Virus record (IMG/VR): IMGVR_UViG_2681813272_000013
Length of the DNA: 8,987 bases
Direction: 5' to 3' (one strand)
Source of the DNA: a virus
Taxonomy: Duplodnaviria; Heunggongvirae; Uroviricota; Caudoviricetes
Shown here: positions 1 through 2,652 of the stretch, one piece after another
Position numbering within the stretch: the first letter of the stretch is position 1
Layout: every line of letters begins with the position of its first letter
Notes under the pieces: model-generated
The model's input: only the letters and a program-made list of their open reading frames with translations
The model's database searches: none
What the model was told of the DNA's origin: nothing
Program-made: the position numbers and the translations under genes

Positions 1-335
1 CCATTCTATTTCAGGAAGGAGTGTCCGTTAAACTCAGGCTACCTCAATTTGCGCTGGGAAGTGGTGCGCAAGTTGCGTCTAGTGGCGATATTTATGGTTC
101 AGTGTGGGAAAACAACTGGTTAAGCACATGGCTGCATAATCATGTCGTTCGGGATATTCGTCTTGGCAGCATTGAATATAAAAACGTATGGCGCGACTAC
201 GGCTTTGGCGATGCGTCAGGTTATGTTTTAACAGCCGCAATTAACAGCAATGCGGATGATATTGTCGACACTGTTGCCAGAAGGCCAATTCAGAAATTGA
301 TTGGGGGAATATGGTACAACGTGGGGAGTGTTTAA
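1..335 (+). CDS. Phage side tail-fibre protein, C-terminal (variable) portion; 5'-partial, continues upstream of the window
   Basis: Frame is open from the window edge to TAA at 333-335. The C-terminus (...[19 protein letters not shown]...[18 protein letters not shown]) parallels the minus-strand alternate segment (...YVRDVRLG...[17 protein letters not shown]). A tfa gene starts 1 nt after the stop, the usual tail-fibre/tfa arrangement. Confidence 0.8.
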
Positions 336-336
336 G

Positions 337-864
337 ATGATGCACCTGAAAAATATTAAGGCCGGGAATCCGAAAACACCGGAACAATACCAGCTAACTA
401 AAAAAGCGGGCGTGGTATGGCTCTTTTGCGAAGATGGCAAAAACTGGTATGAGGAACAAAAGAATTTTCAGCCAGACACCATAAAAATTGCTTACGATGA
501 GAACAACATCATCGTTGCTGTCAGTAAAGACGTTTCAACTATTAATCCTGAAGGGCTAAGCATAGTTGAAGTTCCTGATATTACGGCAAATCGTCACGCA
601 GACAATAACGGAAAATGGATGTTTCTGGATGGTAAAGTAGTAAAGAGGGAATATACAGAACAGGAACTGCAACAACAGGCCGAATCACAAAAGGCCGCAT
701 TGCTTTCCGAAGCTGAATCAGTCATCCAGCCGCTGGAACGAGCTGTCAGGCTGAATATGGCAACAGACGAGGAACGCACACGACTGGAAGCATGGGAACG
801 CTACAGTGTTCTGGTCAGCCGTGTGGATACGGCAAATCCTGAATGGCCACAAAAGCCTGAATAA
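337..864 (+). CDS. tfa: Tail fibre assembly protein (TfaE / Mu gpU-like chaperone)
   Basis: ORF-track protein from [22 protein letters not shown]... to ...[14 protein letters not shown] matches the e14 TfaE pattern as I recall it ([21 protein letters not shown]...NPEWPEMPQ). The track start at 301 is a GTG; ATG at 337 sits 1 nt after the tail-fibre stop. Confidence 0.9.
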
Positions 865-869
865 AAATT

Positions 870-889
870 AAGGCCCGATAGCGGGCCTT
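870..889. terminator. Bidirectional hairpin between the convergent tfa genes
   Basis: AAGGCCCG-ATAG-CGGGCCTT: perfect 8-bp GC-rich stem with a 4-nt loop, lying between the tfa stop (864) and the tfa' stop (893). Confidence 0.6.
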
Positions 890-892
890 CTC

Positions 893-1426
893 TCATTCTG
901 GTTGTTCGGGAAACGTTACTGGCAGGCTGGAGGTGTCTGTGGATTCAACCTTCTGCGCATAGAGCATCCACTCGGTTAATTTTTGTTTATTCTCATCGGA
1001 AATGATGCCCAGCTGTAGCTGAGAGTCCCACAGCTGGGTTTTATCCCTGACGAGCTGCAGCAGGCTCTGCTTTTCATTTTCCGCTTGTTGCCTTTGCTCT
1101 TCCTCGGTATAAGTTCGCTTTATCACCGCACCATCTTTGAACATCCAGTTGCCCGAAATATCAGCCCGGCGATTTGCTGTAATATCAGGCAACTCAACGA
1201 CACTTAAACCTTCTGGATTAATTGCTGATACATCCTTGTCTATAGCAATAATTATTCCCTCAACTGTGTAAGCCAGTTTTATTGTATCCTCCTGAAAGTT
1301 TTTTAATTCCTCATGCCAATTTTTTCCATCTTCGGACCATAACCAGATAACATCAAAATTCTTTGTTAGCTGGTATTGTTCAACGGTTTTTGGATTACCT
1401 GCGACAATGTTTTTTAAATGCTGCAT
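893..1426 (-). CDS. tfa: Tail fibre assembly protein, second inverted copy (tfa')
   Basis: 177-aa protein [37 protein letters not shown]... is paralogous to the plus-strand tfa along its N-terminal two-thirds and diverges at the C-terminus. Convergent orientation is typical of Mu G / P1 C / e14 P invertible segments. Confidence 0.9.
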
Positions 1427-1428
1427 GA

Positions 1429-2350
1429 TTATACCTGCGATACGTTATACCATGTTCCGTTAATTAACTTTTGTATTGGTCTGAATACTGCCGGATCATC
1501 ACCATCGACTTCACCGATAATACCAAGCCCCGTGATTACATGGCCTGATTTTTCATACATCACGCCTTTCTTCATGGTCTAAACAACTCGTGTGCCAAGT
1601 CTGACATCTCTCACATAGCGGGAATCAAAGTTACCGTAATCCGAGGGATTAACACGTCCCGTAATATTTATGGTTTTATTACTTTGAATGCTTCCGGAGA
1701 CAAAGCGCATAACATGGACGTTATTAGCATAAACATCCAGATTACCATCGCCTTTTTGTTTAAAGCCCGTGTCATTATCACCCAATACAATCGAATTACC
1801 GCCAAGAGCACTGGATGTTCCGATACCCAGTGCACCATTCAGTTGACCACCAGATAACGGCAGTGCACCAACATCTCCTGCTGAAGGTTTTCTGGTGGTG
1901 TAAAATTCGGACCAGTCGGCTTCAAAACCATAACCATCACGGGCTGAACGATAAAAAATACCGCCATTTTTATAATTAATCCGAAACTGAGCTGCAGGAC
2001 AACTTCCTTCTCCCATATAAAAATGAATAATTAACGTTGATGCACCACTAATAGTTGCGTTATAGGCTCCGCTACTCCAGTTCCATCCAACTGCTTTATC
2101 ATTCGCAACGGTGCTTCCTGTTTTCCCTAAGGCAAACGCACCAACATGACTTGCTTTTAATGTGATATCGGAGGAACCATCAAAAGCCACATTGCTTATT
2201 TTCCTGGCAGTTTTTAATTTTGCAGCTGTAGAAGCATTGCCGGATAGTTCACCAGAAAGGCCACCGCTGAATGTTTGTCGATTAGTCCAGGTATTCGCTG
2301 TACTGAGTAACGGTATTTTCTCCCCGCTTGTGCCGAGTTCTCGTAAACCG
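1429..2350 (-). pseudogene. Alternate tail-fibre C-terminal segment (S'v-type), interrupted by an in-frame amber codon
   Basis: The minus-strand frame has no start codon of its own and is open from the crossover site (about 2350) down to TAG at 1579-1581. The same frame then continues 49 codons to TAA at 1429-1431, ending ...[17 protein letters not shown], which is homologous to the plus-strand tail-fibre end. tfa' starts 2 nt later. Confidence 0.65.
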
Positions 2351-2363
2351 AGGTTTTAGATAA
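2338..2363. other. 26-bp site-specific inversion crossover site (hix/gix/pix-like)
   Basis: TTCTCGTAAACCGAGGTTTTAGATAA is an imperfect palindrome that matches hixL as I recall it (TTCTTGAAAACCAAGGTTTTTGATAA) at 22 of 26 positions. It sits at the junction of the alternate tail-fibre segment and the invertase gene, as in Gin/Hin/Pin systems. The partner site would lie upstream of the window. Confidence 0.65.
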
Positions 2364-2417
2364 TGGCGGTTTCTGGCCTGCATGGCATGATTTGTGCTTT
2401 TGGACGGGAGATTCAGC

Positions 2418-2652
2418 GTGCTGATTGGCTATGTAAGGGTATCAACAAATGACCAGAATACAGACCTGCAACGAAACGCTCTTGTTTGTGCAGGATATGA
2501 ACAAATATTTGAAGATAAATTAAGCGGAACAAGGACAGGCCGACCTGGATTAAAACGTGCTTTAAAGCGCCTTCAAAAAGGTGACGCACTGGTTGTCTGA
2601 AAACTGGACTGACTGGGGCACTGTATGCGGCATCTTGTCGTGCTGGTGGTGG
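2418..2652 (+). pseudogene. pin: Serine recombinase DNA invertase (Pin/Gin/Hin/Cin family), 5' fragment with in-frame stops
   Basis: GTG at 2418 preceded by GGGAG. Translation MLIGYVRVSTNDQNTDLQRNALVCAGYEQIFEDKLSGTRTGRPGLKRALKRLQKGDALVV is near-identical to the Pin N-terminus as I recall it, including the catalytic-serine motif YVRVST. Stops fall at 2598-2600 (TGA, where the family has Trp), 2610-2612 (TGA, where it has Arg) and 2658-2660 (TAG). About 130 C-terminal codons are missing. Confidence 0.85.

Follow-up and report, generated by a model that had tools for sequence, protein, structure and literature searches.

Background

In intact invertible tail-fibre modules, such as Mu G/Gin, P1 C/Cin, e14 P/Pin and Shigella B/PinB, the constant 5' part of the fibre gene lies outside the invertible segment. 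A crossover site is placed in frame at the boundary between the constant and variable parts, and the interior of the segment is made up of two mirrored sets, each comprising a fibre tip and a tfa gene. A serine invertase of the Din family binds two inverted sites, along with Fis on an enhancer in the 5' end of the invertase gene. It cuts the central GA, rotates the DNA halves and religates them, with the result that the expressed tip and its chaperone are swapped. The Shigella B segment, whose GenBank record is D00660, reportedly has a functional pinB, as Tominaga et al. are said to have described in 1991, as opposed to the invertase stub of the locus analyzed here.

A switch of this kind with a dead invertase is already known. 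For Escherichia coli EC958 (ST131), inversion in trans of an allele with a dead invertase has been reported, with both orientations seen in one culture (Forde et al. 2014, PMC4134206). The P switch of e14, with its intact pinE, still flips in culture (PMC4272514). The enhancers of these systems are situated in the 5' part of hin and gin, that of hin lying about 100 bp from hix and the Fis sites of gin inside the coding region (PMC3798978, PMC3378877).

We analyzed a stretch of DNA of 8,987 nucleotides, hereafter the window, for which an original prediction from the sequence had proposed a host-range switch of the Mu G, P1 C and e14 P kind with a dead invertase. This identification was right, and we conclude that positions 1-2744 very probably constitute a decayed invertible tail-fibre module in a lambdoid prophage remnant of Shigella sonnei, with the module locked and its partner crossover site lost.

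Results and discussion

Relationship to known switches

On sequence comparison, the switch is of the Mu G/P1 C/e14 P type, with the Shigella B segment/PinB system being the closer fit and the allele being the same as that of prophage Phi4 of EC958. The prophage lies at ompW next to trpA and, by the same comparison, is the counterpart of Phi4. The latter occupies the same ompW/trpA site and shares both the gene order J-lom-fibre-tfa-tfa'-fibre fragment-truncated recombinase-tfa fragment-SAM methyltransferase-Rha-Ash-ompW'-trpA and the dead-invertase allele (EC958_1582), with its two TGA codons and tfa fusion (PMC4134206). However, Phi4 keeps both crossover sites and the full fibre gene and flips in culture, whereas in the window one tip, Sv(A), is interrupted by IS600, the other, Sv'(B), has a nonsense codon and the partner site is probably absent. 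Moreover, positions 47-1594 have no high-identity match in EC958, the interior tip and tfa alleles being different.

The Mu G/Gin system has the same layout of S, U, U', S', gix and gin. Positions 337-1464 of the window are 82% identical to its U/U' region and 2343-2608 are 93% identical to the region from gix to the 5' part of gin. Mu differs in being a transposable phage whose gin is intact and which has both sites, whereas the element in the window is a lambdoid remnant whose fibre has a lambda-type N-terminal domain (phage_tail_N). The P segment/PinE of e14 in E. coli K-12 likewise represents a fibre inversion switch of a defective lambdoid prophage, but one with an intact pinE. The Shigella B segment is comparable in size to the segment studied here, both being about 3 kb.

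Two mirrored fibre-tip sets, both damaged

The Gin/Pin/PinB-type module spans positions 47-2744 and comprises two mirrored sets, Sv(A) with tfa on the plus strand and tfa' with Sv'(B) on the minus strand, in both of which the tip is damaged; the constant part of the fibre is absent from the window. An Rfam search gave no match inside 1-2744. Positions 1-46, which had been taken as part of the fibre, are actually the last 46 nt of an IS600 element (IS3 family, 1264 bp; minus strand) that interrupts the variable part of the tail-fibre gene, with the junction at 46/47. The same 46-nt end closes every copy of the element in the related loci L004, L006, L007 and L011; the complete L004 copy shares 99.8% identity with the annotated IS600, and locus L028 displays a simple IS600 insertion with a 3-bp ATT target duplication. 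The window itself contains only the last 46 nt of the element. This IS600 end, the nonsense codon in the alternate tip and the fusion of the invertase stub to tfa at about 2645 had been missed in the original prediction.

The tail-fibre 3' end and tfa gene that had been placed on the plus strand are both present. Sv(A) is represented by the last 95 codons and stop codon of a variable fibre tip (47-335), with no 5' part, start codon or promoter, and 48-332 matches residues 824-918 of the intact 918-aa fibre of L005 with 100% identity over 95 aa in a tblastn search. It is followed by tfa(A), an intact tail-fibre assembly chaperone gene (337-864, plus strand, 175 aa; Pfam Caudo_TAP, E=9.8e-37), the exact protein product of which was found in 4270 blocks of the assembly collection. 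Between the convergent tfa genes is a GC-rich hairpin (870-889) with an 8-pair stem, including 6 GC pairs, followed by a T run, which a consensus scan marks as a likely terminator.

The inverted tfa' and promoterless alternate fibre segment on the minus strand were also recovered as described. The mirrored chaperone gene tfa'(B) (893-1426, minus strand) is intact and codes for a protein of 177 aa (Caudo_TAP, E=4.8e-34) with 55% identity to tfa(A); the two genes share the inverted repeat I1 (337-495/1268-1426). The alternate variable part Sv'(B) (1582-2337, minus strand) has 252 codons and lacks a promoter, and its frame is open through the crossover site. In a tblastn search the minus strand of 1582-2367 was 98.9% identical to residues 614-875 of the L009 fibre, and a Pfam match to gp37_C was detected (E=6e-8). 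Sv'(B) is truncated by a TAG codon (1579-1581, minus strand), which alignment to locus L002 of E. coli reveals as a CAG to TAG change; in the S. sonnei locus L012, position 1581 is G and the codon reads CAG. Beyond it lie the detached last 48 codons of Sv'(B) (1429-1575, minus strand), which are contiguous with the fibre ORF in L002 and whose C-terminal end parallels that of Sv(A). Both fibre tips are dead, Sv(A) being cut by IS600 and Sv'(B) carrying the nonsense codon, and the module is predicted to express no fibre.

The crossover site and the invertase pseudogene

A 26-bp crossover site of the Din family, of the bixR type, is located at 2338-2363 on the plus strand (TTCTCGTAAACCGAGGTTTTAGATAA). 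Its halves, TTCTCGTAAACC and GGTTTTAGATAA, flank the central dinucleotide GA, in agreement with the Din consensus and its defined central dinucleotide. This site had been described as hix/gix-like, and it does align with Din-family sites: it matches Phi4-3', the stub-side site of EC958 Phi4, at 26/26 positions, gix at 23/26 and hixL at 22/26. With bixR of the B segment it agrees at 24/26; the outer half-sites of the two are identical and both have GA at the core (bixL and bixR sequences from PMC3241671, table 3). The pix sites of e14, in contrast, match it at only 19-20 of 26 positions and have an AA core. The site occurs just once in the window, as against 0 expected from 200 shuffles, and is placed in frame at the constant/variable boundary, around residue 614 of the fibre in L005 and L009. 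A degenerate search for other Din-like cores in the window, L004 and L007 yielded weak, chance-like matches only. Thus, the window has one site, whereas two inverted 26-bp sites flank the segment in the relatives L005, L009, L011, L012, L014, L028, L030 and L031. The partner site is of the bixL type (TTCCTGTAAACCGAGGTATTCGATAA), being exactly bixL in L005, L012 and L028, and the same site is found as Phi4-5' in EC958, as it is in the intact S. sonnei relatives.

Positions 2364-2417 (plus strand) form a putative leader or upstream region of the invertase gene; Mu gin and the intact L001 invertase gene both have alignable sequence at the corresponding place. The serine-invertase pseudogene follows (2418-2645, plus strand) and, in keeping with the earlier estimate of about 60 codons with stops, has 60 codons from a GTG at 2418 before TGA codons at 2598-2600 and 2610-2612, the in-frame stops being codons 61, 65 and 81. 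We considered this GTG as a mutated start and rejected the idea, as the coding sequences of Mu gin and of the intact L001 invertase also start with GTG. In tblastn comparisons with L001 invertase and Mu Gin, homology is lost at about 2645 (about codon 76). The stub matches the Resolvase N-terminal domain (E=4.6e-15) over positions 2-69 of the 145 in the Pfam profile and yields no Pfam match to HTH_7; it retains the catalytic-serine motif YVRVSTNDQ, while the E-helix and HTH domain are absent. Hence the segment has no intact serine invertase next to it that would combine the catalytic domain, the E-helix and a C-terminal HTH.

Fused to the stub is the 3' end of a third tfa gene (2646-2744, plus strand), with a TAG at 2658-2660 where tfa has Trp. 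It falls in the repeat family D3 (2647-2764/4991-5108/7295-7412). Reverse-frame ORFs at about 4922-5083 and 7212-7562, considered as extra invertase fragments, were rejected, as these are tfa 3' ends of the same family. Further along the window is a 3.6-kb insertion (3015-6614) that occurs in none of the related assemblies; the ORFs at its junctions (2945-3778 and 6539-7066, both minus strand) have products of which neither is on record.

Inversion in relatives that share the dead invertase

The stub shows 0-1 mismatch in 437 nt across loci with orientation A (L005, L012) and orientation B (L009, L011), and that of E. coli L002 differs by 3 over 437 nt. The inversion breakpoints in these relatives fall inside the 26-bp site: the outer half-sites are fixed and the inner half-sites exchanged, with the swap occurring within the shared core GTAAACCGAGGT. 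Between S. sonnei 391324 (lineage 1.5) and 830292 (lineage 2.3) only the 2.95-kb segment is inverted. Likewise, E. coli isolates 4/1-1 and 4/0 have 0 mismatches in flanks of 3225 and 6418 bp, with the segment inverted. Among complete E. coli genomes, the junction to the dead stub is of the type seen in the window in 239 and of the opposite type in 143. These observations of both orientations all come from relatives. Because both orientations, with exact exchange of half-sites, occur in relatives sharing the dead stub, comparison of these loci indicates that the dead-invertase switch was flipped in trans. The proposal that the segment is frozen unless a paralogous invertase acts in trans therefore holds up for the relatives, where a dead stub is accompanied by both orientations; in the present locus its conditional part most likely fails, as the second site is probably missing.

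Probable loss of the partner site

The original prediction had called for a search for a partner site upstream, which we conducted in relatives. In 12 of the 13 assemblies with the same IS600 junction there is no second crossover site within 10 kb upstream (none in 20 kb), and in the same 12 phage lysis genes abut IS600, with no target duplication. The remaining one, L028 (CP022672.1), keeps the partner site 1.85 kb upstream of the position matching base 1 of the window. A derived SNP, G at 2618, is found in the window and in exactly those 12 assemblies, whereas L028 has the ancestral T. As the site is absent in 12 of the 13 assemblies that share the junction, and the window carries their SNP, the partner site has most likely been deleted here too, a reading based on relatives and one SNP for a window that starts inside the IS600 end. 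The module is therefore probably frozen whatever invertase is present. Lack of an upstream partner, which the original prediction had named as grounds for refutation, thus probably applies here, yet the description of a fossil switch stands, with the lock being irreversible. The partner site could also have moved elsewhere in the chromosome by rearrangement instead of being deleted.

The contrary reading, that the partner site survives upstream of IS600 and that the invertase of another prophage flips about 4.2 kb including IS600, appears unlikely to us. Exactly such an arrangement, with both sites intact, is seen in L028, trans inversion of this allele is documented, and some S. sonnei assemblies have an intact Gin-like invertase, P0109, in a Mu-like prophage (337 blocks as against 4270 for tfa in protein searches). 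Nevertheless, the window groups by its 2618 G with the 12 assemblies that lack the site rather than with L028, and with both tips dead flipping would switch nothing functional. We regard it as extremely improbable that the two orientations in relatives result from RecA-dependent homologous recombination between short inverted repeats, or from the prophage having been replaced by horizontal transfer. In favour of such an origin, no trans-acting invertase was identified in the genomes with both orientations, and the repeats around the sites reach about 36 bp (PMC4134206, table 3). Yet perfect identity between partner sites extends over about 12 bp at most, the half-sites are swapped exactly at the canonical Din-site core, and the 100% identical flanks of the sister isolates exclude prophage replacement. 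In one EC958 culture, one prophage segment was inverted in about half of the PacBio reads, which indicates that switching is frequent in that strain (PMC4134206).

Inversion in trans in the relatives and a locked module in the window thus remain our preferred readings, and a separate question is whether the 60-codon stub is maintained because it is itself functional, be it as a peptide or as a cis-acting Fis enhancer for borrowed invertases. An identical stub is present in S. sonnei and at least 382 complete E. coli genomes, and 176 of its first 182 nt (97%) are identical to Mu gin, in the part of the gene to which the hin and gin enhancers map (PMC3798978, PMC3378877). From this identity and location, the stub probably still carries the Fis enhancer. 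However, descent of a single prophage allele explains the wide distribution equally well, and with the partner site probably gone here the enhancer would be without a target; accordingly, we see maintenance for function as a tentative possibility and somewhat doubtful.

A proposed order of decay

The decay may have begun with the invertase losing everything after about codon 76 through fusion to a tfa 3' end and gaining stops; the truncated-invertase allele is common to many E. coli. The segment would have continued to flip by means of an invertase acting in trans from another prophage, following which Sv'(B) would have acquired its nonsense codon and IS600 would have entered Sv(A). Finally, an IS600-associated deletion may have taken the head and tail genes, the constant part of the fibre and the partner site. 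This would leave a single orphan crossover site, the stub of the invertase probably with its enhancer, two dead tips and two intact tfa genes.

It is conceivable, though very unlikely, that the orphan site and the enhancer-bearing stub are a live substrate, which, in S. sonnei strains with an intact Din-family invertase such as P0109, could pair with crossover sites in other prophages so that large parts of the chromosome are inverted or deleted, and that the stub may persist as an enhancer-only switch with borrowed invertases.

Conclusions

The locus represents a phage host-range switch of the textbook kind, far gone in decay within an S. sonnei prophage remnant that is riddled with IS elements, and as such is of little consequence. 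In annotation, the invertase, both fibre fragments and the IS600 junction should be labelled as pseudogenes or remnants. The orientation of the segment varies, both between S. sonnei lineages 1.5 and 2.3 and between sister isolates of E. coli, and should be treated neither as an assembly error nor as a naive phylogenetic marker.

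The switch module and its decay

Host-range switches of this type have been established since the 1980s. The module in the window is the fossil of a Din-family switch, as the original prediction held, and it is deader than proposed: only a stub of the invertase remains, IS600 cuts one fibre tip and a nonsense codon interrupts the other. An ORF listing and Pfam scans recovered the predicted order of fibre 3' end, tfa, mirrored tfa', alternate tip, crossover site and stub. The plus strand carries a tail-fibre C-terminus (48-332; 95 residues, matching at 100% identity the end of the fibre of the related locus L005, which is intact at 918 aa), followed by tfa (337-864; 175 aa, Caudo_TAP E=1e-36), and the minus strand the mirrored tfa' (893-1426; 177 aa, Caudo_TAP E=5e-34) and the alternate fibre tip (1582-2367), which matches residues 614-875 of the L009 fibre at 98.9% identity. 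A minus-strand TAG at 1579-1581, CAG in E. coli L002 and S. sonnei L012, detaches the final 48 codons of the alternate tip as a small ORF (1429-1575). Both tfa chaperone genes are intact, although the fibre tips, the invertase and the remaining tail region are dead.

The 26-bp site TTCTCGTAAACCGAGGTTTTAGATAA (2338-2363) occurs once in the window, with 0 occurrences expected by chance. Comparison with the published crossover sites of the E. coli EC958 prophage Phi4 (PMC4134206) and of the Shigella B segment, bixL and bixR (PMC3241671), gave matches of 26/26 to Phi4-3' and 24/26 to bixR; alignment to gix (23/26) and hixL (22/26) upholds its assignment to the hix/gix/pix/cix type.

The serine-recombinase stub runs from GTG 2418 to TGA 2598-2600 (60 codons), with a second TGA at 2610-2612, in line with the predicted truncation to about 60 codons with stops. 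It retains the catalytic-serine motif YVRVSTNDQ, and its first 182 nt are 97% identical to Mu gin. The GTG is not an abnormal start, since the coding sequences of Mu gin and of an intact comparison invertase (L001) also begin with GTG. Invertase homology ends at about 2645, at a fusion to the 3' end of a third tfa gene, in which TAG (2658-2660) has replaced the Trp codon. In hin the enhancer is located about 100 bp away from hix, and gin contains its three Fis sites in the coding sequence (PMC3798978, PMC3378877); by analogy the stub probably still supplies a cis-acting Fis enhancer. The tfa 3'-end fragment (repeat family D3) is present in three copies (2646-2744, 4933-5079 and 7216-7380), each adjoining a methyltransferase copy or fragment, and these look like recombination scars between prophage remnants.

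Chromosomal context and known counterparts

Related loci were gathered from complete chromosomes by exact look-up of the tfa protein. Several of these chromosomes match window positions 1-3014 and 6615-8987 at 100% identity. The accessions include three of S. sonnei: CP179990 (strain 830292, lineage 2.3), CP179997 (strain 391324, lineage 1.5) and CP037997 (strain FC1653). The element is a lambdoid prophage adjoining trpA, with the gene order J, lom, fibre, tfa, tfa', fibre fragment, truncated recombinase, tfa fragment, SAM methyltransferase, Rha, Ash, ompW' and trpA. EC958 Phi4 occupies this chromosomal site with an identical gene order; its invertase stub shows the two TGA codons and the tfa fusion seen here, and both crossover sites are the same. 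Its invertase was described as severely truncated and lacking the HTH domain, and both orientations were found in one PacBio data set, for which inversion in trans by the invertase of another prophage was proposed (Forde et al. 2014, PMC4134206). In the Shigella B segment, bixL as published equals the partner site of intact S. sonnei relatives, and bixR differs at two positions from the window site (PMC3241671). In L002 (NZ_OZ040035.1, 1400-8700) the same dead-invertase, methyltransferase and tfa-fragment module, with a full fibre in the opposite orientation, adjoins potB rather than trpA; thus, the module is not confined to prophages at a single integration site.

Compared with all 13+ related S. 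sonnei assemblies, the window has its SAM-methyltransferase gene split by a 3.6-kb insertion (3015-6614). Within the insertion lie a minus-strand ipaHe 5' fragment comprising the LRR part (3022-3778), a second copy of the methyltransferase gene (4094-4762), the tfa 3' fragment at 4933-5079 and, at 5167-6342, a transposase of the IS110 family (274 bits to NCBIfam 'RNA-guided transposase'). A match to Rfam family IS009 (4842-5045) lies just upstream of the transposase and a 20-nt inverted repeat (6360-6379/6527-6546) after it. The order ipaHe-methyltransferase-tfa fragment is that of the ipaH island beside btsS in EIEC-like E. coli (L019). As the two junction ORFs match no protein on record, either a rare rearrangement or a chimeric assembly might account for the insertion. 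Hits that exceeded the Rfam gathering score were the Shigella sRNA CssrB (3906-4085, 230 bits), which lies upstream of the ipaH fragment, and, beside Rha/Ash in the prophage immunity region, C4 antisense RNA (8412-8499) and isrK (8523-8597).

IS600 and the probable loss of the partner site

Positions 1-46, previously taken as fibre, are instead the end of an IS600: every copy of this IS3-family element in the related loci (1264 bp, 99.8% identity to annotated IS600) ends in these 46 nt, and fibre homology starts at base 47. The IS600/fibre junction is common to 13 assemblies. One of these, L028 (CP022672.1), has a simple IS600 insertion in the plus-strand tip Sv(A), with a 3-bp ATT target duplication, and retains the constant fibre part and a bixL-type partner site 1.85 kb upstream of the equivalent of window base 1; this arrangement is the primary IS600 event. 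In the other 12, IS600 is abutted by phage lysis genes or further IS600-rearranged DNA, with neither a target duplication at IS600 nor a second crossover site within about 20 kb. The simplest reading for these is an IS600-associated deletion that took out head and tail genes along with the partner site and the constant part of the fibre. Because the window starts inside the IS600 end, its membership in the deleted group is not directly observed; position 2618, G in the window and all 12 but T in L028, intact S. sonnei loci and E. coli, makes it by parsimony very probable. This copy has thus most likely lost both the partner site and the constant part of the fibre. Compared with L004, some S. 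sonnei assemblies (L007/L023 and L025, 1-9660) show inversion or other rearrangement of the DNA upstream of IS600, which indicates repeated IS600-mediated rearrangement at this prophage.

Inversion in relatives and the fate of the window copy

In relatives that keep both sites, the dead-invertase switch is not frozen. The window orientation is shared by L005 and L012 and reversed in L009, L011 and E. coli L002. Of the half-sites, the outer two are fixed (GGTATTCGATAA towards the constant fibre part, GGTTTTAGATAA towards the invertase), and the inner ones (TTCCTG..., TTCTCG...) move with the segment, placing the exchange inside the shared core GTAAACCGAGGT, as expected of a serine invertase cutting at the central GA. 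Between S. sonnei lineages 1.5 and 2.3 the 2.95-kb segment alone is inverted, with collinear flanks; between E. coli 4/1-1 and 4/0 it is inverted with half-sites swapped, the flanks showing 0 mismatches over 3225 and 6418 bp. Loci of either orientation share one stub (L005 and L012 against L009 and L011: 0-1 mismatch in 437 nt; E. coli L002 differs at 3 positions), so the invertase was already dead when the inversions between these loci occurred. Among complete E. coli genomes, the window-type junction to the stub was found in 239 and the opposite junction in 143, counts that vary with the 80% coverage threshold and the tip allele beside the site and are no exact census.

An intact Gin-like invertase, P0109, is encoded by a Mu-like prophage of some S. 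sonnei assemblies, whose own tfa lies on opposite strands in L015/L017 versus L016/L018 (about 4950-5990), so the switch of that prophage is flipping. The original prediction held the segment to be frozen unless a paralogous invertase acts in trans. This fits the relatives with both sites, which invert despite the dead stub, but probably not the window: with partner site and constant fibre most likely lost, a paralogue could not flip this module, and the orphan site could at most recombine with sites of other prophages. This allele, with its dead invertase and inversion in trans, was already known from EC958 Phi4, and its sites are those of the Shigella B segment; to these the S. sonnei copy contributes no more than ordinary decay driven by insertion sequences.
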